Positions 1 to 18,054 of a stretch of DNA of 64,000 bases are shown here, one piece after another. The stretch is from IMG/VR virus record IMGVR_UViG_3300028797_000101, positions 95,305-159,304 of that record; one strand, given 5' to 3'. This DNA comes from a virus. Lineage: Duplodnaviria; Caudoviricetes. Both the position numbers and the translations under genes were made by a program. Within the stretch, counting starts at the first letter, position 1. The number at the start of each line of letters is the position of its first letter. Under the pieces are notes generated by a model. It made no database searches. It saw only the letters and a list, made by a program, of their open reading frames with translations, and had not been told where the DNA came from.

Positions 1-20
1 CAGAAAAACTGATTAAAATT

Positions 21-296: not shown

Positions 297-312
297 TGAG
301 GAGGGAACAAAA

Positions 313-1124: not shown

Positions 1125-1693
1125 TGGGTTTAGGAAGCATGGAACAGAGAACTGCAGGCATGAAGCGGCAAGCTAAAGAACTTATAGAGCAATCGTACCT
1201 GCGTGGGTATAAAGCGGGATATTCTAAGGCAGAAACCGATTATCACGCTAACACAGAAGATGATCGGCAATCGTCTTATGAGTTAGGTTCAAATATGGCT
1301 TGGGAAGCGGCGCGTAAACTGGTGTCAATGAATTACATTGAGTGTAACAAAGTCCTTAGCGACGGTGTTTTGACGGTTGAAACTGTAGATGATATTTTTA
1401 TCAAATACACTGCATCCGAAGCAATTGAGAAAATCCAGGCTTATGCGGAGCAGAAGAAACAGAAAGAAGACGAAGAAATCTGCGTTGGTGATGAAGTCAT
1501 ATTGAATGCAAATTCATCTTATGACGCAAACACAAAAGCAATCGTTATTGTAAACGACAACAGTACAAGATATCCATACAATGTGCTAGGTCCTGATGGT
1601 GAAACCGAATGGGTCGACCTAGATGCTATTGACGGTAAGACGGGCCACACATTTCCAGAAATCGTGGAAGCTTTAGAGAAGTTAAGGAGTTGA
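1121..1693 (+). CDS. hypothetical phage protein, paralog of 597..1124
   Basis: Same conserved blocks; overlapping start/stop. Confidence 0.75.
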   Translation: MMGLGSMEQRTAGMKRQAKELIEQSYLRGYKAGYSKAETDYHANTEDDRQSSYELGSNMAWEAARKLVSMNYIECNKVLSDGVLTVETVDDIFIKYTASEAIEKIQAYAEQKKQKEDEEICVGDEVILNANSSYDANTKAIVIVNDNSTRYPYNVLGPDGETEWVDLDAIDGKTGHTFPEIVEALEKLRS

Positions 1694-1707
1694 AGGAGAA
1701 CGGGTGA

Positions 1708-2172
1708 ATGGAGAATAAATGTAAATATTGGGATGAAGAAAAAGACGGAGTTTCAGATGATAAGTTAAAGGATTTCGCACTTAATTTCCAAGCCAGAATA
1801 AACAATGAACTCCTGTGGGAAAATGAACAATTGAAGCTAAGAATCGAAGCATTGCAGCCGGATCATTACGGAGATTGTATCAGCCGTAAAACTGTGCTCA
1901 AAGTAATTGAAACAGTATGTTTCAGCGATGCTTGGAGGCAGTTTAGGGCAGATTATGGAAGTAACGGAGAGAGGGACTATATAATCAACTACATAAAACA
2001 GATGCCATCTACTCGGCCCGACCAGACGATTATTATGTGCAAGGACTGCGATGAATGGGACAGAGGCAAGAACTACAGTGGTTATGATGTGCGCAGCGAT
2101 ATGGGATATTGTTCCGTTATGCACACTGTTGTAGGCGAGAACTACTATTGTGGTGATGCAGTAAGAAAGTGA
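1708..2172 (+). CDS. modular hypothetical protein (DCISR module, Cys-rich C-terminus)
   Basis: RBS; DCISR...MPS block and CKDC...C...YC. Confidence 0.7.
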   Translation: MENKCKYWDEEKDGVSDDKLKDFALNFQARINNELLWENEQLKLRIEALQPDHYGDCISRKTVLKVIETVCFSDAWRQFRADYGSNGERDYIINYIKQMPSTRPDQTIIMCKDCDEWDRGKNYSGYDVRSDMGYCSVMHTVVGENYYCGDAVRK

Positions 2173-2183
2173 GGATAAGGAAG

Positions 2184-2276
2184 ATGAAAGTAATATTTGA
2201 TCTAATTATTTTTGTCGGAGTTGCATCCGGAGTTTCCACATATTTTGGAATGAAACTTGTGGAGTGGTTGGAATAA
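2184..2276 (+). CDS. 30-aa hydrophobic peptide (not in ORF track)
   Basis: MKVIFDLIIFVGVASGVSTYFGMKLVEWLE directly after a junction motif/RBS. Confidence 0.5.
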   Translation: MKVIFDLIIFVGVASGVSTYFGMKLVEWLE

Positions 2277-2341
2277 GGAATCTTACTGGACAAGAAGGAA
2301 AATGATAGAAAGATGAGTGCATGGAGCAGGAGGGCAAGTGA

Positions 2342-2758
2342 ATGAAGATTGACGAAGCAATCAAAAGGTTCATTGACAACGCAGAATATGAGCGTTCTCA
2401 TGGAAATCTGCAAGGGTGTTTAGAGTTTAGACAACTTGCGGAATGGCTTGCAGAGCTTAAACATTTGAGAGAACAGACGGATCCTTGCGAGGACACTATC
2501 AGCAGACGGGCTGCTGTATCCGTTGCGAATGATTTTGATGCAACCATGGTGGTAAGGGGATTGGAGAGGTTGCCCTCTGTTCATCCGGAACAGAAGATCG
2601 GGAAATGGATAACCTTAAAAGATGAGTATGGGGATGTAGTAGAAGCTGTTTGCTCTAACTGCGGAAGGAATGGAAGTCCCAATTGGAAGTATTGCCCGGA
2701 CTGCGGAAAACTGAAAGAGGTGAGTGATGGAAATCAAGGAAATAAAACCAACAGATAA
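2342..2758 (+). CDS. modular hypothetical protein with C-terminal zinc ribbon
   Basis: PCEDTISR module; GKWI...CSNCG...YCPDCG. Confidence 0.75.
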   Translation: MKIDEAIKRFIDNAEYERSHGNLQGCLEFRQLAEWLAELKHLREQTDPCEDTISRRAAVSVANDFDATMVVRGLERLPSVHPEQKIGKWITLKDEYGDVVEAVCSNCGRNGSPNWKYCPDCGKLKEVSDGNQGNKTNR

Positions 2759-2948
2759 GGACTATCCTATCATCATGGGCTTAGTTGACAAACCCGAACA
2801 ATATACGTTGTTTCGTTTAGACGGATTGACAGTAGTTCCTTTGTATCAAGTCATTGATGCTCTTTTAACAATCAAGCCCGATGTGAATGTAAGAAATGGC
2901 ATAAAATATTGTGCTAATTGTGGCAAGAAGATGGAGGAAGATAGGTAA
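2724..2948 (+). CDS. hypothetical protein
   Basis: RBS GAGGTG; ends KYCANCGKKM. Confidence 0.6.
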   Translation: MMEIKEIKPTDKDYPIIMGLVDKPEQYTLFRLDGLTVVPLYQVIDALLTIKPDVNVRNGIKYCANCGKKMEEDR

Positions 2949-3260
2949 ATGACACATGAAGAAATGATAGAGCAACTTGAGAATACTATTTTGCTTATTA
3001 AGCAAAACGGCAAAGATTGGTGGGATGAGAGAGACATTCCTGTTTTGGAGGAATCAATCAAAGCCATGCAGACGGAGCAGGAATGGATTCCGGTTAGTGA
3101 AAGGTTGCCGGAGAAATATGGAAAATACATTTGCACCATTGATGTCTATGACAGAGATAGAACTGTTGATTTTGTTACATATGACCCAAATTTGGGATGG
3201 TATGTGCATAATGTGACAGCCTGGATGCCGCAGCTAGAGCCGTGGAAGGAGGAAGAGTAA
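2949..3260 (+). CDS. DUF551-like protein
   Basis: EWIPVSERLPE...VTAWMPQLEPW. Confidence 0.75.
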   Translation: MTHEEMIEQLENTILLIKQNGKDWWDERDIPVLEESIKAMQTEQEWIPVSERLPEKYGKYICTIDVYDRDRTVDFVTYDPNLGWYVHNVTAWMPQLEPWKEEE

Positions 3261-3433
3261 TGAGAGAAGAAATCACAGAAAGACAGCTAGAAGATGTACG
3301 TTGGGTTCCGGCAGAATCCATCGAGTATCATGTGACATTATTCGGAAGAATAATGGGAAGAATCATTACTTTTTTGATCCCTAAAAAAGCATTTGATAAA
3401 TTTTTGGACTATTTGTGGAAGTGGGACGAATAA
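3260..3433 (+). CDS. hypothetical protein
   Basis: TAATG coupling with upstream gene; RBS. Confidence 0.55.
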   Translation: MREEITERQLEDVRWVPAESIEYHVTLFGRIMGRIITFLIPKKAFDKFLDYLWKWDE

Positions 3434-3453
3434 TGGCTTAAACAGGAGGGCGA

Positions 3454-3711
3454 GTGATGAATCATCCTATTGAAAACAGATACAGATATGGACTTTGCTA
3501 TAACTTAAATGGGCAGATTGTTGGATTTAATCTTTCACCGGATGTTTGTATAGTGCTTACGGACGAGGAGATTGAAAGGGTGTTGGGGGCGTACGCAAAG
3601 CGAAAATATGAGCAGGATGGATTATTTGCATACAGATGGCGAGATTGCAAAAATATAAATAACCTTGCCGGAAAGACTAATGAACAAAATGAGGAGATGG
3701 ATGATGAATAA
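3454..3711 (+). CDS. hypothetical protein
   Basis: GGAGG RBS, ORF track. Confidence 0.6.
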   Translation: MMNHPIENRYRYGLCYNLNGQIVGFNLSPDVCIVLTDEEIERVLGAYAKRKYEQDGLFAYRWRDCKNINNLAGKTNEQNEEMDDE

Positions 3712-3973
3712 TTCTTATTGGAATGAAGAAGATGATGAAAACATTATCTGTCCATACTGCGGGAAATCATATGAGCCATCTTATGAGGACACATACATTG
3801 GTGATGACATCGCTGATTGCTATACAGAAGATGAGCATGAATATGTTTGTGATAGATGCAAAAAGAAATTTACAATGTATGGGTATCAAGCAGGATGGAA
3901 GTATCATACGGAAACTGTTGACGGGGAAATGACCGAAGAAGAATATGAAAATATGCCGGAGGTAGATTATTGA
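3701..3973 (+). CDS. acidic zinc-ribbon protein
   Basis: CPYCG...CDRCKK; RBS GAGGAG. Confidence 0.65.
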   Translation: MMNNSYWNEEDDENIICPYCGKSYEPSYEDTYIGDDIADCYTEDEHEYVCDRCKKKFTMYGYQAGWKYHTETVDGEMTEEEYENMPEVDY

Positions 3974-4371
3974 GCATGACAACAGAATTGATTGAGAGAT
4001 TGCGTCAGCATGCAGACACATTTGAGAAAAGTGGATTTGCTGTTGATGGACTTATAAAGGATTACAGAGAGGCCGCAGACACGATTCAACTCTTGTCTGA
4101 AAAACTACACGCTTCGCAGACAGAACCCTGCGAGGATTGTATCAGCAGACATGTGGTGAAAGAGCAAATGATTAAGTATGGATTTCATGCTCCGGATATG
4201 ACGGTAACAGAATTTGTCGAAGATTTACCGCAGAAAGAAATCACGATAGAAGATGTAAAAGACTATTGTGAATCCAGAAACCTTGTTGTTATTTCAAAAG
4301 ACTTATTTGTCAGAATGAACCGCACCGCTGATGAAATTTATACTTATTTGAAAGATAGAGAAAGAAGGTGA
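3970..4371 (+). CDS. modular hypothetical protein (PCEDCISR module)
   Basis: ELIERLR...REAADTI, PCEDCISR. Confidence 0.7.
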   Translation: MSMTTELIERLRQHADTFEKSGFAVDGLIKDYREAADTIQLLSEKLHASQTEPCEDCISRHVVKEQMIKYGFHAPDMTVTEFVEDLPQKEITIEDVKDYCESRNLVVISKDLFVRMNRTADEIYTYLKDRERR

Positions 4372-4377
4372 GTGTAG

Positions 4378-4860
4378 ATGGTAAAAGAAGGCGATATATG
4401 TATTCTTGATGAAAGTGTTGAATATTCCATATTAAGCGAAAAACCTTTTGAGGTATTAGTTCTATGGAATGGCGTTAATGGTCAACCACTAGTCACAAGA
4501 ACGAACGAGTACAGACCTTTTTGGACTACCTATTCACAGCTTGTGGAGGTTGCTGGCCATATTGATTTAGCAGAAGCCTTAAGCAGTCCAGCGATGGGAA
4601 TGTTTGCAGATGCGATAGACTATCTTGAACGTGCTAATGGAAATTGCGATAGTGATTGTAGCTATTGCAAATACAACAATGATTGCTGGAGTTATAAATG
4701 CAGACAAATGGCAATCTGTTCCCTCGAAGCGTGGTATAAGGTTAGGACGGAGATGCAAGATATCATGATAGTAAGTCAGGACGAGGAGCGCATATATCAG
4801 CAGATAAAGGCGATTATCGACAAGCACATGAATGAAAGCGAGGTAAAGAATGAAAATTAA
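4378..4860 (+). CDS. modular hypothetical protein
   Basis: AICSLEAWYKV and IIDKHMNESE blocks shared with other array ORFs. Confidence 0.65.
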   Translation: MVKEGDICILDESVEYSILSEKPFEVLVLWNGVNGQPLVTRTNEYRPFWTTYSQLVEVAGHIDLAEALSSPAMGMFADAIDYLERANGNCDSDCSYCKYNNDCWSYKCRQMAICSLEAWYKVRTEMQDIMIVSQDEERIYQQIKAIIDKHMNESEVKNEN

Positions 4861-5128
4861 AGAGTTTCGCTGTAAATGCGGACATGATAATTTTTTCTTT
4901 GCGGATAAAGGAAATCAGATAGGCATCTATTGCTCTTACTGCGGTAAATGGTTCAAGTGGGCAGACAAAGACGAGCAGAATCTGAGAATGAAACAAGTTT
5001 CTGTACTTGACAAGATAAGAGCTGAGATAGAACAAGCTTCATTTGAGGATGTCAATGGTTCGAGATACATATTCGTTAATAAAATCAATCAGATCATTGA
5101 CAAGCATATGGCAGAAAGCGAGAAATAA
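4850..5128 (+). CDS. zinc-ribbon plus VLDKIRAEI/IIDKHMAESE module protein
   Basis: CKCG...CSYCGKW; shared C-terminal module. Confidence 0.7.
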   Translation: MKIKEFRCKCGHDNFFFADKGNQIGIYCSYCGKWFKWADKDEQNLRMKQVSVLDKIRAEIEQASFEDVNGSRYIFVNKINQIIDKHMAESEK

Positions 5129-5129
5129 C

Positions 5130-5318
5130 ATGACAGATAAAGAAAAATTTATTCAACTCTTAACAGAACTTGGAGTTGAATTTGAAGTGACTGGAGGCAC
5201 AATCTACATCAGTAAGGGGTATTGTGATGGTGCGGAAGAATTCGGAATATCTTTTTGGGATGGCGAAGACTACCCTGCAGGATCATTTCATGAATTTTGG
5301 GTAGTGCCGGAGAGATGA
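5130..5318 (+). CDS. hypothetical protein
   Basis: ATG right after junction motif (MTDKEKFIQLL). Confidence 0.55.
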   Translation: MTDKEKFIQLLTELGVEFEVTGGTIYISKGYCDGAEEFGISFWDGEDYPAGSFHEFWVVPER

Positions 5319-5347
5319 TACATACAGGAAAGAAAGTGAGGGCGCAT

Positions 5348-5623
5348 ATGAAAGATCCAATATGTAACTGGGAATATACTGGCGAATACGACACTAACAA
5401 ACAAGGCCAGATTAAAATGGCCATGTATAAGACGGATTGCGGAAGGGAAGTCAAATGGACAAGAGATAACAAGATAGGGCAGTTATTTAAGGACTATAAG
5501 AATCAAGTTGTATCACAATACATGGATTTTTATGTGAAATGTCCATACTGCGGTAAAGTCTTGAACCTCTATAATCCTTACGATGATGGGGAAACATGGA
5601 GATACGGAATAGGAGGGTTGTAA
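5348..5623 (+). CDS. hypothetical zinc-ribbon protein
   Basis: ATG after junction motif; C.W...TDCG...CPYCGK. Confidence 0.6.
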   Translation: MKDPICNWEYTGEYDTNKQGQIKMAMYKTDCGREVKWTRDNKIGQLFKDYKNQVVSQYMDFYVKCPYCGKVLNLYNPYDDGETWRYGIGGL

Positions 5624-5624
5624 T

Positions 5625-6035
5625 ATGTCAATCGTAATTGAAGAAATGGATATGCCGAAGTGTTGTAGCTCGTGCGAGTTCAACAACGGGTATCGCTGCA
5701 CACGGACGGAAACCGTGATTGATAGAGATTATGAATATCAGGAGCGGTTGTCAGATTGCCCATTACATGAAGAATCAAAAGAATGGATTCCAGTTTGCTA
5801 TCCACCAAAAGAAAAAGGCAAGTATCTTGTAACATTAAGTCTGGCAGGAGTAGCAAGCCAAATAGCTATACGAAGGTATGCTCCAAATTTGCAGGAAGTC
5901 GATCCGCATGATTTTTATGGAGAAAATAAAGCGGGATGGTATTCATATGATTCGGAATGTGGGTACAGTGAAACAACAGCGGTCGTAGCATGGATGCCCC
6001 TTCCTGAGACATACAAGGCAGAAAGTGAAGGATGA
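5625..6035 (+). CDS. chimeric protein: MDMPKCC..C module plus DUF551-like domain
   Basis: MDMPKCCSSC...R..DCPL; EWIPV...VVAWMPLPETYKAESE. Confidence 0.7.
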   Translation: MSIVIEEMDMPKCCSSCEFNNGYRCTRTETVIDRDYEYQERLSDCPLHEESKEWIPVCYPPKEKGKYLVTLSLAGVASQIAIRRYAPNLQEVDPHDFYGENKAGWYSYDSECGYSETTAVVAWMPLPETYKAESEG

Positions 6036-6038
6036 AGC

Positions 6039-6318
6039 ATGAAAAATTTAAAATATCCTAAAGAATTCTATACTTATTCTGGACTCTTCGGTGGAGATAT
6101 GGATTGCGAATACACGAACGAATCTGAAAAGCTGGTCAAATGCAGAAAATCACATGAATGTGTAAATTGCCAAAAAATTGATAAACATAGGTGACTATGC
6201 TGTAGAAGATAAAGCTTTATTCCGCGGAGAAGGATGGAAATCGTGTTACATTTGTGTTCAGTGTATTGAAGAATGGTTAGAAGAATCGGGACGGGCAGAA
6301 AGTGAGGATGAGGGATGA
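6039..6318 (+). pseudogene. Cys-rich hypothetical gene with +1 frameshift (or read error)
   Basis: Removing one A at 6172-6177 gives a continuous ORF KCRKSHECVNCQKLINIG...CYICVQC...AESEDEG. Confidence 0.65.
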
Positions 6319-6611
6319 AAGAGATTAAATGTCCATATGACTTAAACCAATTTCTTTTAAGAGAGCCCACATTTGAAAATACCTTCCCAGAAGAAGAATG
6401 TGAAGCACGAAAATGTTATGGAGATTGTTTTCATTGTTTTTCGACATCAATAGCAGGTCGTGACCATCAACTAAAAGCATCGGCTGCTGTAATGAACAAG
6501 ATAAAGTCAATCGTTGCAGAGTGGAAAGCTGACACATGGACGGACAATGTTTCTTATGATTGCATGTCTAAAATTGCAGATGTATTGGCAGAAAGCGAGG
6601 ATGGAGAATGA
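6315..6611 (+). CDS. hypothetical protein
   Basis: Coupled start; ends AESEDGE. Confidence 0.65.
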   Translation: MKEIKCPYDLNQFLLREPTFENTFPEEECEARKCYGDCFHCFSTSIAGRDHQLKASAAVMNKIKSIVAEWKADTWTDNVSYDCMSKIADVLAESEDGE

Positions 6612-6793
6612 CAGCGGAAAGAGAAGAAGCAATCAATGAGTGGCTAGGAGTACATTGCCAGACTTGCATGGAAAATCTTGACAGAGGCACCGGATTTGTA
6701 AACTGTCAAGCCGAATGTGAGGTACAGAAAGACATTGGAATTGCTTGTATTCATTATGAGGAATATATGGCAGAAAGCGAGGATACGGAATGA
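6608..6793 (+). CDS. hypothetical Cys-rich protein
   Basis: ATGA coupling; ends AESEDTE. Confidence 0.6.
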   Translation: MTAEREEAINEWLGVHCQTCMENLDRGTGFVNCQAECEVQKDIGIACIHYEEYMAESEDTE

Positions 6794-6969
6794 AAAATGT
6801 TTCTTTTGATTTATCTACACTAAAGATACTTCTTGCAGAGAGTGAAGATAATCACAAGCCTTGGGAGAGATATTCAGTCATAGACGAGGCGAACGGAGTA
6901 GTATATCAAGGTACATGGGGTACAGTATTCAAAGTTTTGAAAACAGCTATAGAAAGCTTTGGAAAGTGA
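6790..6969 (+). CDS. 59-aa hypothetical protein (not in ORF track)
   Basis: MKNVSFDLSTLKILLAESEDNHKPW...; ATGA coupling. Confidence 0.55.
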   Translation: MKNVSFDLSTLKILLAESEDNHKPWERYSVIDEANGVVYQGTWGTVFKVLKTAIESFGK

Positions 6970-6978
6970 GGATGAAGG

Positions 6979-7197
6979 ATGAAACTAAAACCAGTATATG
7001 TTGTGCATAGGGAGAGTGATGGGTACGACTACTCATATATCTTTGGATACGACAGGTTATTTTCGCTTTTTGGCAAAGTTTATGTCAAAACAAATCGTTC
7101 TTTGATTTACGCACTCACTCATTTTGGAAACATTTTGCATTTTGACAGCAAAGATTGTTTTGATACCGTAGCGGAAGCAAAGAAAGCGATTGAATAA
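6979..7197 (+). CDS. hypothetical protein
   Basis: After junction motif. Confidence 0.6.
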   Translation: MKLKPVYVVHRESDGYDYSYIFGYDRLFSLFGKVYVKTNRSLIYALTHFGNILHFDSKDCFDTVAEAKKAIE

Positions 7198-7250
7198 AGC
7201 AATGTGGGGGCAATAGATCATTGTCGCAAGGCAGGAAGCGAGGATAAGAA

Positions 7251-7409
7251 ATGATAAAGAAATTAGCGACACTAACAGTACGAAAAAGCGCAGATTGGTC
7301 AAATACCGTTGTTAAGGCATTGAAAGAAGCAGGATTCACCGTAGTTCTGGAGCAGGACGGATTGATTGAAGATACATACATCATCGCCGAAAGTGAGGAG
7401 AAGAAATGA
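7251..7409 (+). CDS. 52-aa hypothetical protein (not in ORF track)
   Basis: MIKKLATLTV...YIIAESEEKK between two junction motifs. Confidence 0.6.
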   Translation: MIKKLATLTVRKSADWSNTVVKALKEAGFTVVLEQDGLIEDTYIIAESEEKK

Positions 7410-7822
7410 CGAGAGATGAATTAGTAGCACATTGTAGACGGAAGATAGCACACTGCGAGAGATGGGCAGCAATCAAAGGAGAAGAAATCTCGAACGATAA
7501 AGTGTATGATGAGCACAGATTCGTTTTAACATTGCTAACTCAACCTCGCGAAGATGAGGTCAACGTGGCAGATGCAATAAGACTTGCAGAGCAAGGACAT
7601 GTGAGAAGACATAAACCCTTTAATGAGATTGCTAAGCAAGCTTGTCACGAGGACAAGATGAAGGTGCTGGAGAAGATTAAGAAAGAGATAGAAGAGTACA
7701 AGTCAACTATCGATAGAGCTATATCGGAAGATGAGTTAAAAATTGAAGGAATGAAAGTAGCTTATACTGATTGCCTTGAAATCATCAACAAATACATGGC
7801 AGAAAGTGAGGATGAGACATGA
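7406..7822 (+). CDS. modular hypothetical protein
   Basis: HEDKMKVLEKI...IINKYMAESE module. Confidence 0.7.
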   Translation: MTRDELVAHCRRKIAHCERWAAIKGEEISNDKVYDEHRFVLTLLTQPREDEVNVADAIRLAEQGHVRRHKPFNEIAKQACHEDKMKVLEKIKKEIEEYKSTIDRAISEDELKIEGMKVAYTDCLEIINKYMAESEDET

Positions 7823-8013
7823 AAGTATTCATAGCAGTAAAATTCAAGCCATTTGAAGCAGAGAGAATTGTAGGAGTTGGCAAGTCTGAAAAAGCAGCTC
7901 TTGCTATTCTCAGAAGGGAGTTTCCTTACATGCGAGGAACTGGGAACAGCATGTCGTCCGATAAGAATAATACATATCTACTCGCAATTCGGGCAGTAGA
8001 AGTAGAAGAATAA
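7819..8013 (+). CDS. hypothetical protein
   Basis: ATGA coupling. Confidence 0.6.
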   Translation: MKVFIAVKFKPFEAERIVGVGKSEKAALAILRREFPYMRGTGNSMSSDKNNTYLLAIRAVEVEE

Positions 8014-8056
8014 ACAAAAGGTTTTACCATTACACGAAGGAAAGCGAGGACAAGTA

Positions 8057-8254
8057 ATGTGGTTGCTACTACCGATAGGAACAATCATGTGCGCAGTAGT
8101 ATGTATAATATGTGATCTGTTTTTGACGAACGATAAACCGAGTCCGTGTGACAATTGTGTTTATCGTTTTTGTGTTTCTAACCAGCATCTTACGATATGC
8201 GATGAGTGCAATGATGGGAGCAATCATAAGGTGGAAAGTGAGTGCGCAGAATGA
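8057..8254 (+). CDS. small membrane-anchored Cys-rich protein
   Basis: Hydrophobic N-terminus, CDNC...CDEC, ends VESECAE. Confidence 0.6.
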   Translation: MWLLLPIGTIMCAVVCIICDLFLTNDKPSPCDNCVYRFCVSNQHLTICDECNDGSNHKVESECAE

Positions 8255-8445
8255 CAGAAATCATATCAAAGCCATTTGACTGGAATGACAATTTATCAGA
8301 AATAGCACAAGAGGATTTTTCTTTGATACAGAAAAACCTGCCATACGGAACAGCTACAACGATAGGGATGGCTTTGGCAAAGTTGGCGTTATTAGAAACG
8401 CAAGGATGCAAGGTTGAGTTGCAGGAAAGCGAGGACGCAGAATGA
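8251..8445 (+). CDS. hypothetical protein
   Basis: ATGA coupling; ends QESEDAE. Confidence 0.6.
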   Translation: MTEIISKPFDWNDNLSEIAQEDFSLIQKNLPYGTATTIGMALAKLALLETQGCKVELQESEDAE

Positions 8446-8723
8446 CAAATGAAGAAGCAATTAAAGAAGCAATTACAAAATTAAAACAACAACAAGCTGA
8501 ATATAATGATACGTATGTTGATTTTGCTGGTGTAAATGATGCATATAATTTAGCAATCCGTTCCCTTGAAGCGTGGGATAAGGTGAAAGCAGCGATTACT
8601 GAAACCATCTTGTATTACAAAGATTGGGGTCTGGTTGAACTCAAGGCACAATACAAAGAAGAAGCACTTAAAGAGGTATTAGAGTGTATTAACAGGCACC
8701 TAAAGGAAGGTAACGAAAAATAA
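8442..8723 (+). CDS. modular hypothetical protein
   Basis: MTNEEAI...AIRSLEAWDKV...INRHL. Confidence 0.7.
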   Translation: MTNEEAIKEAITKLKQQQAEYNDTYVDFAGVNDAYNLAIRSLEAWDKVKAAITETILYYKDWGLVELKAQYKEEALKEVLECINRHLKEGNEK

Positions 8724-8777
8724 TGGAATTCGTTATTGTAATTGAAACCCAGTATTCATAAATGAGGCGAACGAAGA

Positions 8778-8981
8778 ATGACACGGAAGGATATTCGGAG
8801 AATCAAAGAAGGTGACACCATATATGATTCAACAGGTTGGGCTCAGGATGTTTTTGAAGTCCAAAAAGATGGAGTTGTTACTATTTGTTGTCGGGAGAAT
8901 TATGCAGGGTACTTTTCAGAGAACAAATTCTATACATTCGATGATTTATTGGGTGACGAGTACATGTTGATTCAAGAGTGA
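8778..8981 (+). CDS. hypothetical protein
   Basis: GAGG RBS. Confidence 0.6.
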   Translation: MTRKDIRRIKEGDTIYDSTGWAQDVFEVQKDGVVTICCRENYAGYFSENKFYTFDDLLGDEYMLIQE

Positions 8982-9037
8982 TGAGTACACGTTGATTCAA
9001 TGAAGGGCGCGAAGATGGAAGAAAGTGAGGATAAGGA

Positions 9038-9379
9038 ATGAATTATACAGGCATATTAAGTCCAGATGGTAGTTTAATAGAATGTGAAAGCTACGAACAT
9101 CTTGATTTAGCAAAAGAAATTGCTGAAAAACTTAGTAGTGAATATTCAAACAAGAATGGTGTTGCATGCGAAGAATATCTACAGAAGCTAGGCTATATCA
9201 TTGTAAGAGCACGTGATGTGTACGGACTTGTCGGCTATTTAGATGATAATGGCAAAGTTATATACCTTTCGAGTGAACAGAAGAAATGGTTGGAAGACAA
9301 TTATGAAGACTTTCCAACCGATAAACAAAGGTCTGTTGATGATCTTATAGACCATAATTGCTGGTATGATGCAGAATGA
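9038..9379 (+). CDS. hypothetical protein (GILSPDG..H type)
   Basis: After junction motif; motif resembles 25967..26482 (AIILPDG...H). Confidence 0.7.
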   Translation: MNYTGILSPDGSLIECESYEHLDLAKEIAEKLSSEYSNKNGVACEEYLQKLGYIIVRARDVYGLVGYLDDNGKVIYLSSEQKKWLEDNYEDFPTDKQRSVDDLIDHNCWYDAE

Positions 9380-9627
9380 AAGAGAGGAGGACGAATCTGA
9401 TGACACTTAGTGAAGAAAAAGATGATTTACTGGCGGCTTTAAGAATTGCACAGGCCGATCGGGATAAGTGGAAAGCAAGAGCGCAGAAACTTGCTGAGAT
9501 AGCTGGAATCAAGACCAGTGACATAGATGTGATAGATTCTACTTATAAAATCTATGACGAATGTATGACTTGCGAGAATAAAGATGACGTCTGTACCTGT
9601 TCCAGAATGTTTGAGAGAATGGAGTGA
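9376..9627 (+). CDS. hypothetical protein
   Basis: Coupled; coiled-coil N-terminus, Cys-rich C-terminus. Confidence 0.6.
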   Translation: MKERRTNLMTLSEEKDDLLAALRIAQADRDKWKARAQKLAEIAGIKTSDIDVIDSTYKIYDECMTCENKDDVCTCSRMFERME

Positions 9628-9812
9628 ACCTGATGAAGAACAAGGCAAGTAGCAAGCCATGCAACAGAAAGAACTGTCTGTATTACGGAATGACATTGTG
9701 TCCATACAGAATGGTATGTGAATACTCCGTTCTAAGTACATGGGCGGATAGACATCTTAAGGAGTTTGATGAGAAAGGAGATAGACGAAATGCAGATAGT
9801 GATCGATATTGA
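9624..9812 (+). CDS. hypothetical Cys-rich protein
   Basis: Overlapping start. Confidence 0.45.
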   Translation: MNLMKNKASSKPCNRKNCLYYGMTLCPYRMVCEYSVLSTWADRHLKEFDEKGDRRNADSDRY

Positions 9813-10152
9813 CGAGGATGTAAAGACTAGATTTTGTTCTGGTCTAGGAATACCTTCGGATACTTCCGCAGTTGCTGATGCATTATATAAAGGCACACCT
9901 CCACCAAGCTGGGTTCCAGTGAGTGAGAGATTGCCTTTATTAGGTCTACATAAGATATCTGAGGATGTGTTGATCACCAATGGCTTTGAATTCTTTATGG
10001 GGTATCTTGTGGAAAGGAAGGGTAAGCTCTCTTGGCGTTATTATGACTCTGGTAGTGAAGTTGAGGTAGGTAGTGTGGACGATGATGTAACTGCATGGAT
10101 GCCATTGTCATTGCCCAAGCCGTATAGAACAGAAAGCGAGGATGAAGAATGA
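9790..10152 (+). CDS. chimeric MQIVIDI module plus DUF551-like domain
   Basis: MQIVIDID...KGTP then WVPVSERLP...VTAWMPL. Confidence 0.75.
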   Translation: MQIVIDIDEDVKTRFCSGLGIPSDTSAVADALYKGTPPPSWVPVSERLPLLGLHKISEDVLITNGFEFFMGYLVERKGKLSWRYYDSGSEVEVGSVDDDVTAWMPLSLPKPYRTESEDEE

Positions 10153-10415
10153 GGTGGGTAACATTTCACTACAACGAGTTAACCGAAAAAGTATCGAAAT
10201 TAAAGGTACACGAAAATAAAGAAACGGCATTAAAGTATTTTAATAGCAATATGAGAGATTTCTTTGAAATTAACATCAATTTTAAAGCCCAGGAACTTCC
10301 CGCTACTTATGGATACGCCTTAAGAAAGTATTGCGGAATATCCGCAAGGGCATTCAAGAAAGAGTTTGGTATTAGTGTAGATGAAGCGTTAGAAACAGCA
10401 CAAGGTAGAAAGTGA
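10149..10415 (+). CDS. hypothetical protein
   Basis: ATGA coupling. Confidence 0.65.
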   Translation: MRWVTFHYNELTEKVSKLKVHENKETALKYFNSNMRDFFEININFKAQELPATYGYALRKYCGISARAFKKEFGISVDEALETAQGRK

Positions 10416-10424
10416 GGGCGCAGA

Positions 10425-10601
10425 ATGACGAGAAGTGAACACAAGTATCAAAAAGCAATCAAGATGCTCGCAGATGAATACCGGAAGTCGCAAGCGATGG
10501 TATTTGTTTACAAGCCAATGGCATACGCATTGTATCAAGTTTGGAAATGGTTTGACGAACATGAAACGCCGAGAATTGCAGAAAGTGAGGACAAGGAATG
10601 A
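10425..10601 (+). CDS. 58-aa hypothetical protein (not in ORF track)
   Basis: MTRSEHKYQKAIKML...KPMAYALYQVWK...AESEDKE, bounded by junction motifs. Confidence 0.65.
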   Translation: MTRSEHKYQKAIKMLADEYRKSQAMVFVYKPMAYALYQVWKWFDEHETPRIAESEDKE

Positions 10602-11119
10602 CAACAGTTTATTGCGATTGTTACGATTGCTACAACAATGATGACGGCAAATGCGAACTTGATGCTATATCAATGAGTGGAAGAATGACAGGCGGTGGAT
10701 GGCTTACGTTGTGTGACGATTATCAAGAAATAAATAGAGAAGATTTTGAGACACAGGAAGGAGTGACACAAATGACTAGAGATGAAATGATTGAAACATT
10801 GATTGTGTTTTGCAACTATAAGCGTCTGGGCTGTCACTACCCTGACGATTGTGCATTGTACGAGGTATGCCGTAGAAGAAACTTCCATACTATGGAAGAC
10901 GAAGAACTACAAGCAATGTATTCCATCATAAAAGCTAAGTCGGAATCTACAAGTATACAAATTGAAATTCCGGCAGGAGCAACAAATGGAGATATGATTA
11001 AGTTGCTTTTTCCTAATTGTCATTATGCTCTTGGAAGCAATCGTAGAATTGAACTTGCCGTAAACAACGGAATTTGCAGTTTCGATTATGATTGGTGGAA
11101 TGCGCCGTATGTGAAATGA
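10598..11119 (+). CDS. fusion of Cys-rich, MTRDEMI and ATNGDMIK...WWNAPY modules
   Basis: Internal RBS+ATG near 10772; distinct blocks. Confidence 0.7.
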   Translation: MTTVYCDCYDCYNNDDGKCELDAISMSGRMTGGGWLTLCDDYQEINREDFETQEGVTQMTRDEMIETLIVFCNYKRLGCHYPDDCALYEVCRRRNFHTMEDEELQAMYSIIKAKSESTSIQIEIPAGATNGDMIKLLFPNCHYALGSNRRIELAVNNGICSFDYDWWNAPYVK

Positions 11120-11133
11120 AGGGAGCGAATCGG

Positions 11134-11436
11134 ATGCAGATTGTTATTGATATTCCTGATGTACCGATACAGGACTACCAAGATTTGTACTACAAAATAC
11201 ACGGGATAGCAGCAAGCGAAGGGTTATTTGATGACAAAGAAAAATCCCAACGCGCACTTGCCTTGAAAGCTGTATTGGATGTCTTGAATGGGGTCGTGAA
11301 TGGCACGCCGCTCCCTAAAGGACATGGGGATTTAATTGACCGTGATGAATTGATAAAAGACAGAGTATCAAATGATAATACTGTAATTCTTGCAAATACA
11401 GCAAAGACAATCATTCCTGCGGAGAAGGGAGAGTAA
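11134..11436 (+). CDS. MQIVIDI/GTPLPKGHG family protein
   Basis: MQIVIDIP...NGTPLPKGHGDLIDRD...TIIPA. Confidence 0.75.
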   Translation: MQIVIDIPDVPIQDYQDLYYKIHGIAASEGLFDDKEKSQRALALKAVLDVLNGVVNGTPLPKGHGDLIDRDELIKDRVSNDNTVILANTAKTIIPAEKGE

Positions 11437-11439
11437 CTG

Positions 11440-11706
11440 ATGCAGATTGTTATTGATATTTCAAGTTACGACAAAGAATGGATAACTAATGGTCATTACA
11501 CTCCAGAAGAGATAAATATGAGAATTTCGGAAGCAATAGCAAAAGGCACACCTATTGATGAAACAGATAATTCAGTATTAGAACAGTTGAAAGATGAAAT
11601 CGAAGAAAAGGGATTCAATAGTCCTTTAATGAATCCTGTATTCACAATGACTGAGATACTAGAAATGATTGACAAGCATATAGTAAGCAATCATAGGAAA
11701 GGATAA
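11440..11706 (+). CDS. MQIVIDI module fused to VLEQLKDEI/IDKH module
   Basis: Shared blocks. Confidence 0.7.
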   Translation: MQIVIDISSYDKEWITNGHYTPEEINMRISEAIAKGTPIDETDNSVLEQLKDEIEEKGFNSPLMNPVFTMTEILEMIDKHIVSNHRKG

Positions 11707-11724
11707 TAAAAGTGAGGAATGAAT

Positions 11725-12009
11725 ATGGCAGATATAGAATTGGCTATTAAGATACCTGCGGCAATATATGAAGCATCACAGATCTTAGACGTTAAACATG
11801 AAGATACTATTCAGATTCCGCTGGAAGTTATTTCAAACGGCACACCGTTCACTAAGTGGCATGAGGACAAGGTGAAAGTTCTGGAGAAGATAAGATCCGA
11901 ACTCTGGATGGAAGGAATGAACCTGACGGGAGAGTATCAAGGTATTTGGGTGCGATTTAGAGACATTGAACGCATCATCAACAAGCACATAGCAGAAAGC
12001 GAGAAATAA
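11725..12009 (+). CDS. MADIEL module fused to HEDK.KVLEKI/INKHIAESE module
   Basis: Shared blocks. Confidence 0.7.
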   Translation: MADIELAIKIPAAIYEASQILDVKHEDTIQIPLEVISNGTPFTKWHEDKVKVLEKIRSELWMEGMNLTGEYQGIWVRFRDIERIINKHIAESEK

Positions 12010-12296
12010 TGATGATGTTTGAATTAGGAAATCAGTACATAGTAGATGTAACCGAAAAGGGAATAATTCCGGTTGCAAAGTTTGACTGTGAGAGATACTT
12101 CGACAGAGATACCGATGACCTAGAGTTTCTCACAGATGAGGAAAAGTCTGTAGTAATCAAGCAAGTTCTAGTTGCGATTCGTGAAGAATTGACGAGCGAA
12201 ACGAAGTATCGTCCTGAATTTGCCTTCAGCAGCGCACTATCTCGTGCGCTTGACATCATTGATAAATACATTGCAGAAAGCGAGATGAATTCATGA
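12009..12296 (+). CDS. modular hypothetical protein
   Basis: Ends IIDKYIAESE. Confidence 0.7.
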   Translation: MMMFELGNQYIVDVTEKGIIPVAKFDCERYFDRDTDDLEFLTDEEKSVVIKQVLVAIREELTSETKYRPEFAFSSALSRALDIIDKYIAESEMNS

Positions 12297-12817
12297 AAGT
12301 ACAAGAAATACCTGTAAATATAAGATGTTTAGAGTATACCCAGGACAAATCAGACAGCGATTATGGTTCATGTTTATATGCAAGATTCTATTTCAATCTT
12401 GAAAAGTATGAACTGAATATCATATCTGATTGCGGAGACTATTCATATAAGTGGATGGCTACACCTGAGCATGAATCATTCCTTGAACTTCTAGCAAGGA
12501 TAAACAGCGATTACCTTATCCGGAAGCTATGCGGAAGTCCTCGTACATTCAATTATGAAAAGACAAAGGAGAATTTCTACAAATACGCAGATGAGGAAGA
12601 AAAGAACAAGTTAGACACAATCTTTGAATATATGAATACGCCCAGCAGCGGAGATGCTTTCCTTGAAATGCTTGAAAATTATTCACTTGACTTTAGCGAA
12701 CCTTGGGAGTGCCTTGAATATGAATACAACTTCCAGCAAAGACGGATCGTTAATATATTTGAGCAACATATTCAACCGGCAATAAAAGAGATGCTTAAGT
12801 CACAAGGCAAACAGTAG
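12293..12817 (+). CDS. hypothetical protein
   Basis: 174-aa ORF, coupled start; LNIISDCGDYSYKW block. Confidence 0.7.
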   Translation: MKVQEIPVNIRCLEYTQDKSDSDYGSCLYARFYFNLEKYELNIISDCGDYSYKWMATPEHESFLELLARINSDYLIRKLCGSPRTFNYEKTKENFYKYADEEEKNKLDTIFEYMNTPSSGDAFLEMLENYSLDFSEPWECLEYEYNFQQRRIVNIFEQHIQPAIKEMLKSQGKQ

Positions 12818-12844
12818 TGGTGAAATACACAGAAAGGATAAACA

Positions 12845-13042
12845 ATGAATAAGATCATCTGTCCCAAATGCGGAGAAAGAGAAATGTATGGAATTCTTGA
12901 AAGATGCCATCAAACTTTAGTGTTTGACGCAGATGGAAATCCTTGTGGTGCAACAGAACTCATAGGTGATGGATGTGGAATCCCTAGATGTTTGAAGTGT
13001 AACAGCAAAATAAAAATAGTAGATGGGAGTCAAGACACATGA
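12845..13042 (+). CDS. zinc-ribbon protein
   Basis: CPKCG...CLKC. Confidence 0.65.
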   Translation: MNKIICPKCGEREMYGILERCHQTLVFDADGNPCGATELIGDGCGIPRCLKCNSKIKIVDGSQDT

Positions 13043-13320
13043 ACGAAGAGGAAGCGATTGAAATATTCCGAAAATTCTGCGAGTTAGGCAAAGATATATC
13101 ATATATTGAGGATGTTGTGCCATGGGCTCTGGAACAAACGCTTGCTCTAAGCAGAAAAGGGACAGTCAATAGACGAAACGAAAACCATTCTGAGATGGTC
13201 AGAGAATGGAAACAAAAACATCCAAAGGGTAGGAAGATCGAATGTTCACGAGACCTCAGAATATCAAGACCCACAATTGATAAATATTGGGATCTGTATG
13301 ATGTGTACCAGAACATGTGA
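13039..13320 (+). CDS. small protein with C-terminal helix-turn-helix
   Basis: W...HPKGRKIECSRDLRISRPTIDKYW resembles an HTH. Confidence 0.6.
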   Translation: MNEEEAIEIFRKFCELGKDISYIEDVVPWALEQTLALSRKGTVNRRNENHSEMVREWKQKHPKGRKIECSRDLRISRPTIDKYWDLYDVYQNM

Positions 13321-13338
13321 CAGAGGAGGAAGGGTCTA

Positions 13339-13521
13339 ATGGATGACGAAATCAAAGTAACTATCTACATACCTAGGAAGACAATCAGAGAGCGCGGCAT
13401 GGATGGTTGCACTGTTGATTTAAGTTTTTGCGACGGAAAATTATGTCAAGCTATTAAGGTGGACGGAACAAGCGAAAAATCGTTGTATTTTGATGATGGT
13501 GAAGAGGAAGATGTCAAATGA
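13339..13521 (+). CDS. hypothetical protein
   Basis: RBS GAGGAG. Confidence 0.55.
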   Translation: MDDEIKVTIYIPRKTIRERGMDGCTVDLSFCDGKLCQAIKVDGTSEKSLYFDDGEEEDVK

Positions 13522-13694
13522 ATAAGTGACCAGTAGATAGAACTAAGAAATCTAACATCAAATGCGAGCATTGTTTTTACGCAGATGCAAACAAATGTTC
13601 AAGGTACTGGTGTGTACTGCACCAGAAAGAGAAGAACTATTGGAACAGGTGTAAGGATTTCATGTGGGGAGAAGAGGAGATCGAGAAGCAATGA
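13518..13694 (+). pseudogene. Cys-rich hypothetical gene with in-frame TGA at codon 4
   Basis: ATG AAT AAG TGA CCA GTA GAT AGA...KSNIKCEHC...KNYWNRCKDFMW; ATGA-coupled at both ends. Confidence 0.6.
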
Positions 13695-13996
13695 CAATAC
13701 CTAAAGAGATAGTCGATAAGATGAAACAGGTCAATTCTCTTATGGGAGAGATAGACAAGTGGCTAGACGAAAACATTGAGCTTGAGGGCTCCAAACATGA
13801 CTACAGACAGTGGATGGCAGGAGATTATGCGCATTCAGATTGGTATCAGTTTACGGACGAGGCGCGTGGTGACGAACAGAATGACGGCGAGTATTGCAAC
13901 CAGTGGTCTGTAGACGACAGCGGCGACAGTTTTGAAGGATATTACTACTATCCCACAGAGACTGGCGAATATTTCTACTTCCAATATTGGTTGTGA
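13691..13996 (+). CDS. acidic hypothetical protein
   Basis: MTIPKEIVDKM...DGEYCNQ...GYYYYP. Confidence 0.7.
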   Translation: MTIPKEIVDKMKQVNSLMGEIDKWLDENIELEGSKHDYRQWMAGDYAHSDWYQFTDEARGDEQNDGEYCNQWSVDDSGDSFEGYYYYPTETGEYFYFQYWL

Positions 13997-14021
13997 TCTG
14001 CAGAAAAGTGAGGTATGGACG

Positions 14022-14369
14022 ATGGCAGAAATAACAGTTGATAAGGCAGGGCTCTTAGAAGAACCTTGCCTATCTTGCAATAAAGCATATGTTGAAGACA
14101 TCTGGTATGAATGGTGTTGTGATGAAAAAGAATGCCCATACAAGATAGAAAACAAGCCACAAGAATGGAGAGGAAGCATGAGTAAAGTATCTTTTGAGAT
14201 TGAGGATGATGCTGTGATCAAGCATACGCCTATGCCAGAAATAGGAGAAGGCATCTATAAAAGTGAAGTTGTAATCACTAAGGAGATCTTTCAGAAGTGC
14301 TACAAGCAGTGGATTGCGCCACAGGAGGAGAGAGTAAGGAAGGAGAGACTGTGGAATGCAGATAAATAA
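14022..14369 (+). CDS. in-frame fusion of two small modules
   Basis: Start after junction motif; internal RBS+ATG at 14178 (MSKVSFEI). Confidence 0.6.
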   Translation: MAEITVDKAGLLEEPCLSCNKAYVEDIWYEWCCDEKECPYKIENKPQEWRGSMSKVSFEIEDDAVIKHTPMPEIGEGIYKSEVVITKEIFQKCYKQWIAPQEERVRKERLWNADK

Positions 14370-14550
14370 AGCGATGCTTGAAAGAGAAGCATATAGACTC
14401 ATAAGAATAGAAGCCAGAAGATTTGACAGAACCACAACGGATAGTGAGTTAGGTAATTACGTTCGTGGTGTAGTCGATTTACAGACACAACTGTATGGCG
14501 AACTTAACAAAGTAGAAAGTGAGGAAGCAGTGCGAGAGGATAAGAAATGA
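14356..14550 (+). CDS. hypothetical protein
   Basis: RBS; VESEE near the end. Confidence 0.6.
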   Translation: MQINKAMLEREAYRLIRIEARRFDRTTTDSELGNYVRGVVDLQTQLYGELNKVESEEAVREDKK

Positions 14551-14595
14551 TGCACTGACGTATGCAACAACAAATTATATAGAAGGAGAATAAGC

Positions 14596-14886
14596 ATGGG
14601 AGTTACTTTGTATTATGGCTACTATTCAAAGGAATGTAATCACCCAAAGGTGTTACCTTATCTTAGCAGAGAAGATTGTGATGATTGTAGCGGAAAACTT
14701 GACATTAGCTTCTATGATATGTGTAGAACATTTGCAGAGTATCATGAAGATGCAGCGTGTTGGGTGTTTTCTGATGTGCTAGATCTATTCAACTTTGCAA
14801 GCAACGAAGCAGTTCCTGCGTGTCTCGCTACTTATATAACAGAACATCATGAGGACGACTTGATATTTATAATTTGGAAGCGATAG
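14596..14886 (+). CDS. hypothetical protein
   Basis: AAGGAG RBS. Confidence 0.65.
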   Translation: MGVTLYYGYYSKECNHPKVLPYLSREDCDDCSGKLDISFYDMCRTFAEYHEDAACWVFSDVLDLFNFASNEAVPACLATYITEHHEDDLIFIIWKR

Positions 14887-14899
14887 GAGGAAACAAGTA

Positions 14900-15229
14900 A
14901 TGAGAGTTGAAGAAATGGCGTTAAGAAGTGAAATACGGCAGATGCTCAATGAAGCCGGTTTCAATAAAAATACTTTGAAAGATCTCGTAAAGGCTGTGCT
15001 GAAAGAAGAGTTAAACAAGGCCATAAAACAAGCAATCGCAGAAACTAATTGCGATATAATGGAATACACGAAGAAGAATATCGACTATATTATAAACAAG
15101 GCTGCGGAAAAAGTGGTTAGAGAAAAGATCACTGATACTATAGTAGGTAACTACTTCAAGCGAATGAAAGTAGATGTAAATATCGATCCCATAATGTCAT
15201 ACAAGGGCGACAGTACGGACAAGGAATGA
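14900..15229 (+). CDS. hypothetical helical protein
   Basis: GGAGG RBS. Confidence 0.7.
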   Translation: MRVEEMALRSEIRQMLNEAGFNKNTLKDLVKAVLKEELNKAIKQAIAETNCDIMEYTKKNIDYIINKAAEKVVREKITDTIVGNYFKRMKVDVNIDPIMSYKGDSTDKE

Positions 15230-15283
15230 CAGATCCTATATGACAGGGAAATATTTAGCATATAAAGGCGAGGTTGATGTAGA

Positions 15284-15598
15284 ATGTTGATACTGCCAAT
15301 CAAGAAAAAGTGGTTTGACATGATCTTATCAGGTGAGAAGAAAGAGGAGTATCGGGAGATCAAGCCATACTACGACACTCGGTTCAAAAACATTTGGAGT
15401 TATCCTGCATATTTTAGCGAGACACACATGATAAGATTCCGCAATGGATATGATCACACTTCACCATCGTTTGTTGCGAAAGTAAGTCTTAGAATAGGAA
15501 CAGGCAAAACTGAATGGGGTGCAGAATCCGGAAAGCAGTATTACGTGTTGTGCATACACAATGTATGCAAGGAGGATAAGAATGCAAGTAGTGATTGA
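15284..15598 (+). CDS. ASCH-domain protein
   Basis: LPIKKKWFDMILSGEKKEEYRE...FRNGY...EWGA. Confidence 0.8.
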   Translation: MLILPIKKKWFDMILSGEKKEEYREIKPYYDTRFKNIWSYPAYFSETHMIRFRNGYDHTSPSFVAKVSLRIGTGKTEWGAESGKQYYVLCIHNVCKEDKNASSD

Positions 15599-15857: not shown

Positions 15858-15859
15858 GA

Positions 15860-18021: not shown

Positions 18022-18054
18022 TGTTAAAAACTATAAGATAAGGAGTGTAATTAA

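Follow-up and report, generated by a model that had tools for sequence, protein, structure and literature searches.

A recurrent word at the junctions of a phage small-gene array is probably a bulged, extended Shine-Dalgarno site common to Lachnospiraceae phages

Why do so many small genes of one phage meet at the same short word? The window analysed here is a stretch of 64,000 nucleotides (nt), bases 95305-159304 of the 159,304-bp genome of a rumen/gut phage of the Caudoviricetes (IMG/VR record IMGVR_UViG_3300028797_000101). The element in question is the motif GAAAGYGAG, which recurs at gene junctions of a small-gene array at the start of the window and often gives the upstream protein an (A)ESE tail. 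A sequence-only reading had taken the motif for a dual-purpose linker, a ribosome-binding site (RBS) and homology tag in one, which would let small genes be swapped as coupled cassettes in an integron-like array. Our analysis favors a simpler account. We put at about 0.72 the probability that (A)GAAAG-N-GAGG would be a bulged, extended Shine-Dalgarno site marking an accessory-gene pool common to Lachnospiraceae phages, and that its role in crossing over would be incidental. The array and the zone in which the word prevails are the following.

1-19553, + strand: small-gene array of about 75 tightly packed genes, starting about 900 nt before the window (from the layout of open reading frames [ORFs] and the upstream sequences)
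4300-12400, + strand: motif zone, with GAAAGYGAGG as the ribosome-site word and GGAGG almost absent (from start-site counts)

An exact search of the window finds GAAAGYGAG 21 times, each time on the + strand; 1.34 matches were expected, and the largest count in a shuffle was 5. The whole genome holds those same 21 copies and none on the minus strand. Twenty lie within 2165-14523; the remaining one, at 30425, is alone outside the array even with the whole genome included, as the sequence-only reading had said of the core. Its estimate of about 24 copies was fair, since there are also five near variants (at 6021, 7234, 9378, 11708, and 14004), and it had rightly placed the motif at junctions shortly before an ATG: 19 of the 21 copies have an ATG 14 to 18 nt past the motif start, 13 of them at exactly 17 nt. 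Its count of about 15 (A)ESE-encoding cases compares with 14 copies that fall in the tail of an upstream ORF of over 40 open codons and encode xESE in its frame, mostly with an ATGA overlap of stop and start. It had also described copies read in other frames, and three of these (2165, 6962, and 10408) supply the upstream stop through the motif's own TGA (ending RK or GK); the remaining copies are intergenic or in leaders or lie behind very short frames.

The placement of the word is that of a ribosome site. With gene calls that are heuristic, the spacer from GAGG to the start codon is 7 nt in 11/16 called genes, within the 7-to-9-nt mode of the genome's GGAGG sites. Called starts in the zone 4300-12400 comprise 15 with the motif, 1 with GGAGG, and 10 others; the array zones on either side use GGAGG, and outside the array there are 86 GGAGG starts versus 1 motif start, so that core genes do use plain GGAGG, as had been claimed. 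The copies are listed here one by one, all on the + strand; each tail that is spelled out in full runs to the stop codon.

2165-2173, +: motif; its TGA stops ORF 1708-2172; the ATG 20 nt past the motif start opens a short ORF only
4834-4842, +: motif, NESE in the tail of 4378-4860; ribosome site of 4850-5128
5114-5122, +: motif, AESE in the tail of 4850-5128 (IIDKHMAESEK); ribosome site of 5130-5318
5332-5340, +: motif in an intergenic leader; ribosome site of 5348-5623
6298-6306, +: motif with ATGA overlap; ribosome site of 6315-6611; homology with loci L121 and L047 begins here
6591-6599, +: motif, tail AESEDGE, ATGA overlap; ribosome site of 6608-6793
6773-6781, +: motif, tail AESEDTE, ATGA overlap; ribosome site of 6790-6969
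6962-6970, +: motif; its TGA stops 6790-6969 (ending GK); ribosome site of 6979-7197
7389-7397, +: motif, tail AESEEKK, ATGA overlap; ribosome site of 7406-7822
7802-7810, +: motif, tail IINKYMAESEDET; ribosome site of 7819-8013
8040-8048, +: motif behind a short frame; ribosome site of 8057-8254
8234-8242, +: motif, ribosome site of the ATG at 8251; left end of a cassette common with locus L069
8425-8433, +: motif, ribosome site of 8442-8723; right end of the cassette common with L069
9021-9029, +: motif behind a 12-codon frame; ribosome site of 9038-9379
10132-10140, +: motif, tail PYRTESEDEE; ribosome site of 10149-10415; left crossover of a two-gene insertion/deletion (indel)
10408-10416, +: motif; its TGA stops 10149-10415 (ending RK); ribosome site of 10425-10601
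10581-10589, +: motif, tail IAESEDKE; ribosome site of 10598-11119; right crossover of the two-gene indel
11995-12003, +: motif, tail IINKHIAESEK; ribosome site of 12009-12296; exact point where homology to the relative sets in again
12276-12284, +: motif, tail IIDKYIAESEMNS; ribosome site of 12293-12817; kept in the relative (L147), where the spacer differs
14515-14523, +: motif inside the tail of 14356-14550 (VESEEAVREDKK); no ORF of at least 35 codons starts after it
30425-30433, +: motif, the sole copy outside the array; ribosome site of a 130-codon ORF from 30443

Some junctions share more than the word. Positions 2163-2182 repeat exactly, over 20 nt, a stretch that includes the motif at 9021-9029; there are three exact repeats of at least 20 nt in the array, every one a junction element, and a 36-nt IIDKHMAESE module is common to five junctions. 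The array genes also include a paralogue family of at least eight members (4850, 7406, 9790, 11134, 11725, 15582, 15860, and 17238). The earlier statement that the ESE tails sit on otherwise unrelated proteins therefore fails for several of them, given this module and this family.

Is the signal in the tail or in the nucleic acid? The word stands at the same distance from the ATG whether it lies in frame 0, frame 2, or a leader. Where it is translated at the C terminus of called genes, the serine codon of ESE is AGY in 11/11 cases and the whole tripeptide is GAA-AGY-GAG in 9/11, whereas internal ESE tripeptides vary freely (TCN in 5/8) and TCN makes up 66% of array serine codons overall. This codon test does not presuppose the DNA word. 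Thus, the word is a nucleic acid signal and not a peptide signal, and the constant ATG distance and the fixed codon choice bear out the claim that it is conserved as DNA or RNA rather than as protein. Because of the 7-nt spacer and the ATGA overlap, the upstream frame must read GAA-AGY-GAG, and we infer that the ESE tail is a by-product of the ribosome site. The contrary proposal, in which the acidic (A)ESE(D/E) tail is itself selected, for example, as a binding or degradation tag on many small phage proteins, can draw on two C-terminal modules, IIDK(H/Y)xAESE and LPxPYKAESE, each of them found repeatedly across many phages and the second on DUF551-like proteins. Set against the copies in other frames and leaders and against tails almost without synonymous variation, it is barely credible; the codon test largely refutes a reading at the protein level.

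The base between GAAAG and GAGG was counted over all of the sequence collected, in copies at ribosome-site position. Here, and in the conservation counts below, we left out the seed copies, that is, those that had fished out the IMG/VR loci.

Embedded, frame 0: T76 C41 A5 G0
Embedded, frame 2 (T makes a TGA stop): T14 C0 A1 G2
Untranslated leader: T15 C6 A15 G0

The "Y" of the motif is set by coding context and is not part of the signal. Many of the leader A counts stem from a single locus, L134, a 23.6-kb viral contig with 8 GAAAGYGAGG copies in ORF tails and 11 GAAAGAGAGG copies, most of the latter just downstream of TATAAT-like boxes.

What would the ribosome see? The word is the complement of a Butyrivibrio-type 16S tail (CCUCCUUUCU) plus one extra base; GAAAG joined to GAGG is the exact complement of CCUCCUUUC. 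The 16S gene was not found in the draft genomes with motif-bearing prophages, and the tail was read from another genome of the same genus, the genus to which Butyrivibrio sp. INlla21 belongs; this 16S end, GGATCACCTCCTTTCTAAGG (also given as CACCTCCTTTCTA), may not be that of the host. RNAduplex predicts 6 bp between AGAAAG and CUUUCU, a 1-nt bulge, and 4 bp between GAGG and CCUC, at -13.0 kcal/mol; by the same calculation, AAGGAGG pairs more weakly (-11.1 kcal/mol) and the unbulged word more strongly (-16.8 kcal/mol). Two things expected of a Shine-Dalgarno site were found: complementarity to the 16S tail, as a predicted duplex with the tail of the Butyrivibrio genus, from which the host's own may differ, and placement 5 to 10 nt before the start on the coding strand only. 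The earlier statement that the GAGG part can act as a Shine-Dalgarno site thus agrees with both position and predicted pairing.

The extent of conservation is consistent with this pairing. In 129 nonseed IMG/VR copies, among the matches listed, the only conservation beyond the searched 10-mer was an A at -1 (61%), which is the last base able to pair with the 16S tail; the flanks beyond it are merely purine rich. Nonseed copies in 115 IMG/VR loci, again among the matches listed, have an ATG 16 to 17 nt downstream, and in a 78-93% identical relative of this phage, the motif is kept while spacers change. Two other identities for the element were rejected. No local hairpin was found around the motif, which is no more paired than control positions (unpaired probability, 0.58 versus 0.52), and this rules out a hairpin that masks the ribosome site; an RNA family is ruled out by the lack of any Rfam family in window positions 1-22000.

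On this basis, we propose the following mechanism. AGAAAG would pair with the six terminal bases of a host-type 16S tail (...CACCUCCUUUCU) and GAGG with its CCUC, with one base bulging between the two helices. The word lies 7 nt before the start codon, and ATGA stop/start chaining usually puts it in the final codons of the upstream gene, where it is necessarily translated as Glu-Ser-Glu. The bulged base would follow the coding context, with Y for serine, T for a TGA stop, and a freer choice in leaders. The small accessory genes with which the word would travel would form a pool that moves between the phages and prophages of rumen and gut bacteria of the Lachnospiraceae type, and the middle block of the array (4.3 to 12.4 kb) would, judging by shared homologues, belong to that pool. 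As the array's commonest short repeat, the word may sometimes serve as a crossover point, and such crossovers would add or remove whole genes with frame and expression unbroken. This use would be a side effect, also seen with other junction repeats, and not a dedicated cassette system.

The spread of the word beyond this phage fits such a pool. A 15-mer scan of IMG/VR matched many contigs of 7 to 277 kb, and many contigs carry 3 to 10 further same-strand copies in clusters, both among the matches listed. Loci picked by protein homology and not by the motif carry 2 to 8 coding-strand copies in 8/10 cases, where an estimated 0.04 or so would be expected per 20-kb strand. A 23-mer scan of species-representative genomes matched 11 contigs, as follows.

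Metagenome-assembled genomes (MAGs): three Lachnospiraceae, two Eubacteriales, and one each of Bacillota, Bacilli, and Acutalibacteraceae
Further matches: the isolate Butyrivibrio sp. INlla21, and two on Akkermansia and Paludibacteraceae MAG contigs

Prophage-like arrays of Butyrivibrio sp. INlla21 show the same tails to the stop codon (LPEAESEDKE and IDKYKAESEGKE) and the same ATGA overlaps. Its 3.3-Mb genome holds 24 copies versus 13 for the control, with at least 7 of them in two prophage-like arrays, and the 13-mer CAGAAAGYGAGGA gave 29 matches versus 10 control matches in 41 genomes of the Lachnospiraceae family. Being near chance in both, the word is ruled out as the host's usual ribosome site; the sequence-only reading had named the motif's being the usual RBS of core and host as fatal to it, and in this respect it stands. 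Butyrivibrio phage Bo-Finn has three copies, one before its major tail gene. Homologues of the array proteins are scattered through other phages in differing orders, often as partial, sub-gene matches, and the 6315-type cassette has a different neighbor in every phage examined. Scans of IMG/VR and JGI metagenomes with the 7406 protein found distant matches to its C-terminal module only, and one with the 22435 protein found a single 6.7-kb contig, which lies outside the array. Taken together, these results show that the word is not private to this phage but is common in unrelated phages and prophages of Lachnospiraceae-type hosts.

Two of these sources call for a remark of their own. The ribosome sites of Bo-Finn (L137, MN882552) are mostly AAAGGGGG, and its coding strand has GGAGG once and AAGGAGG never, which suggests that GGAGG is avoided or that a G-U pair is preferred at the center of the site. 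An ENA contig of 101 kb (NODE_296, L153) has a prophage-like region with an integrase, a CI-type repressor, glycosyltransferases, two TnpB (OrfB_IS605) genes, and an overlapped small-gene array with a PF26211 homologue and two motif copies.

Several observations weigh against a plain Shine-Dalgarno account. The 16S pairing is a thermodynamic prediction, made with a tail from the Butyrivibrio genus that may not be the host's. A strong ribosome site would be expected in host genes too, yet the word is near chance there. The unbulged complement GAAAGGAGG, predicted to pair better, is absent from the + strand of the phage (0 versus 17 bulged) and is rarer than the bulged word in related loci (16 versus 130 Y-form copies). 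Coding constraints do not explain this preference and are ruled out as its cause, because the unbulged word would be read as a harmless xGA-AAG-GAG-G at the same spacing. Moreover, the tight spacing, the universal ATGA, and the extended identities of 20 to 36 nt at some junctions exceed what pairing needs; these point to copying. Given the bulge preference, the non-use by hosts, and the block-wise use, the word may have a class-specific function or may have spread by descent along with a mobile gene pool. A look through the literature on bulged Shine-Dalgarno sites or ribosome-site linkers in phages turned up nothing relevant.

A class-specific function might mean that an RNA-binding protein or endoribonuclease, encoded by phage or host, recognizes the bulged word and so switches accessory, probably early, genes as a group. 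Phage T4 offers such a case, in that RegB cuts GGAG in early ribosome sites and RegA represses such sites. The sharply block-wise use of the word within one long operon-like array, its non-use by host genes, and the favored bulge would all suit a control site of this kind. A base that changes with context fits poorly, however, with sequence-specific protein recognition, and one common regulator is hard to expect across phages as different as contigs of 7 to 277 kb and prophages. Neither a phage bS21 nor a RegB homologue was found in the genome, although the RegB search was weak, as its profile was silent in all 14 control genomes too. We consider group control through the word highly unlikely.

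Whether the word serves recombination was judged from breakpoints. Contigs of the same strain from other samples, found by exact-protein look-ups, are fully syntenic; in a JGI contig of this strain (L142), the sole difference is a 12-nt indel (TTGAAGAATGGT) at 6266-6277, between direct GAAGAAT repeats. Only one moderately diverged relative was available, 78-93% identical and made up of short ENA contigs; two or three samples show each of its junctions. Relative to the window, it shows five events within 8.6 to 13.6 kb.

Event 1, 8746-9783 (about 1,040 nt): present in the window and not in the relative; flanked by copies of an MQIVI-type start module
Event 2, 449 nt, genes 10149-10415 and 10425-10601: two-gene indel with its crossover inside the motifs at 10132 and 10581
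Event 3, 11134-11439 (306 nt): one tandem paralogue, between 37-nt repeats of ribosome site plus MQIVIDI
Event 4, 11553-11994: replacement whose right end is exactly the motif at 11995 and whose left end is inside a gene
Event 5, 12805-13308 (504 nt): two-gene indel without a repeat

Breakpoints fall at gene junctions in 9/10 cases. Motif junctions account for 3/9 of these, and 7/16 junctions in the compared span carry the motif; by this small sample from one relative, motif junctions are thus not overrepresented, and the enrichment proposed earlier as a check did not appear. Where the array uses GGAGG, it is just as mosaic, to the level of modules smaller than a gene, and in relatives (L149 and L152), the N terminus of the 4378 protein is fused to the C termini of other array genes, an in-frame sub-gene shuffling. 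We read these data as junction repeats in general, the motif among them, being used as crossover points, with junction-to-junction events surviving because frames and ribosome sites stay intact. Of the dual-purpose linker, then, the RBS part is supported and so is crossover use at 10132, 10581, and 11995; the notion of a special stitching element is not supported, as the other events used other repeats or none.

A stronger version would keep the word and 20 to 30 nt around it as a homology tag for cassette swaps by a RecA system, a translational counterpart of the promoter-early stem-loop (PeSL) modules of T4-type phages. The two-gene indel inside two motif copies and the replacement that ends at a third speak for it, as do the L069-shared cassette bounded by motifs 8234 and 8425, the changing neighbors of the 6315-type cassette, the junction identity of all three long exact repeats, a spacing and ATGA more uniform than ribosome pairing needs, and the restriction of the word to phages and prophages. 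Yet motif junctions are not favored by breakpoints, the GGAGG zone is as mosaic and includes intragenic breakpoints, and strain-level copies from other samples are syntenic. Furthermore, 10 to 11 nt, with only the A at -1 conserved beyond them, is little for homologous recombination to work on; the conserved core has the same extent as the 16S complementarity, which is unexpected for a pure homology tag; and Bo-Finn has the word before a structural gene, outside any array. A dedicated linker is therefore distinctly unlikely. Less so, though still unlikely, is a combined view in which the word is a phage-restricted "expression standard" for a pan-phage Lachnospiraceae accessory pool, with recombination at the word driving cassette exchange. 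It may then be tuned for ATGA termination-reinitiation or read by some factor, so that hosts do not use it, and its fixed geometry may let any two cassettes join in frame, as a translational analogue of PeSLs. The bulged Shine-Dalgarno account remains the one that we prefer.

Other junction elements and gene scars lie in the same array.

11118-11154 and 11424-11460, +: a different junction repeat of 37 nt (ribosome site plus MQIVIDI start), where the relative has a single gene
16845-16877 and 17498-17530, +: an exact 33-nt junction repeat (CLVHVEIMEKE tail plus the next ribosome site)

A second junction dialect, (GGAATA)GGAGGACGCAGAATGA with WNRR or MEKE tails, precedes four called gene starts (-317, -9, 8442, and 17540), and a variant of it, GGGCGCAGAATGA, precedes gene 10425; the spacer ACGCAGA is common to the GGAGGACGCAGAATGA dialect and some GAAAGYGAGG junctions. 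Past the stop of 8442-8723, positions 8724-8747 hold a decayed MQIVIEID-type gene start (ATGGAATTCGTTATTGTAATTGAA), which looks like the scar of the insertion or deletion of about 1 kb that separates the window from the relative. An internal module, Q-x-x-P-C/Y-E/G-D-C/T-ISR, recurs in three array genes (1855-1888, 2474-2507, and 4117-4150).

The genome that carries the array is rated 100% complete with direct terminal repeats in the database listing, and its contig ends overlap. It encodes a T4-like portal, a family A DNA polymerase, a DnaB-like helicase, RecA, and BspA-type leucine-rich-repeat proteins. Of the two activities that the sequence-only reading had suggested might drive exchange, the phage's own RecA is present (38747-39922), and a Cas4-like nuclease is not supported, with no Cas4/PDDEXK_1 match to PF12705. 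Cultured phages include no close relative: a megablast search of INPHARED with the array and the core as queries gave none, the sole match being 61 nt to Bo-Finn, and a short-query blastn search of one junction against the same database was near noise. The array is strongly purine skewed (GC skew, 0.21 to 0.32) and ends at 19520-19553 in a strong terminator-like hairpin with a 14-bp stem; no excess of promoter- or terminator-like sites was found inside it. Almost none of its proteins receives a name from Pfam and PHROGs. The family of gene 12293-12817, PF26211 (Phage_phiTE_072), is large, with 70 cluster representatives that are 31-100% identical, and this gene is the best-conserved anchor of the array for collecting related arrays.

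The preferred account has several uses. It explains simply and checkably why unrelated small proteins all end in AESE, and it makes the word a practical marker for accessory arrays in Lachnospiraceae phages and prophages and for the calling of small genes and their starts. Standardized junctions could also explain how the array tolerates frequent gene gain, loss, and shuffling. In many phages of the rumen and gut, a bulged 10-bp site appears to be favored over the perfect complement while being near chance in the host-family genomes searched, which is unexpected for a plain strong site.

How does the array compare with known systems? Like the cassettes of an integron, its genes are small, mostly without promoters, and all on one strand, and an element recurs at every junction. 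Unlike integrons, which pair IntI with attC sites, the array shows no attI/Pc arrangement, no attC-like imperfect hairpin, and no tyrosine recombinase. PF00589 had no match in the complete genome and matched all 14 control genomes, and no attC-like inverted repeat was found, the pairing of the motif being close to control and its reverse complement absent from the strand. The integron comparison, made in the earlier reading, fails because both the recombinase and an attC-like structure are lacking. In this phage, genes seem to be exchanged by ordinary recombination at short repeats or by illegitimate recombination.

The PeSLs of T4-type phages are intergenic cassettes of promoter and terminator with a hairpin, for which mini-circles have been shown (Arbiol et al. 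2010, PMC2839356; PMC4122927). As with PeSLs, a short regulatory repeat stands at junctions of small, nonessential genes in a plastic region, and indels between relatives can end inside the repeats. In contrast, the word here is a translation signal lying mostly inside coding sequence, much shorter and without a hairpin or promoter, and it is not enriched at the breakpoints compared: in the one relative, 3/10 lie in the motif, with one clean motif-to-motif indel.

Mosaic lambdoid and other temperate phages, with their nin-region-like arrays, are described by the Hendrix model of illegitimate recombination filtered by function. The present array resembles them in its shuffled accessory genes, its breakpoints at gene boundaries, its DUF551-like and Lar-like families, and its overlapped small ORFs. 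It differs in having a defined, widely shared junction word and in that at least some events are repeat mediated.

The word works like the ribosome site inside translationally coupled operons, for which coupling at ATGA overlaps with an intragenic Shine-Dalgarno site is textbook; the host-takeover module of SPO1 likewise has strong ribosome sites. The array shares with coupled operons a ribosome site in the last codons of the upstream gene, a fixed spacing, 4-nt overlaps, and a long run of small genes. Unlike them, it reuses one word of 10 to 11 nt with a single bulged base about 20 times, and that word is common to unrelated phages, is favored over the perfect complement, and is near chance in host-family genomes.

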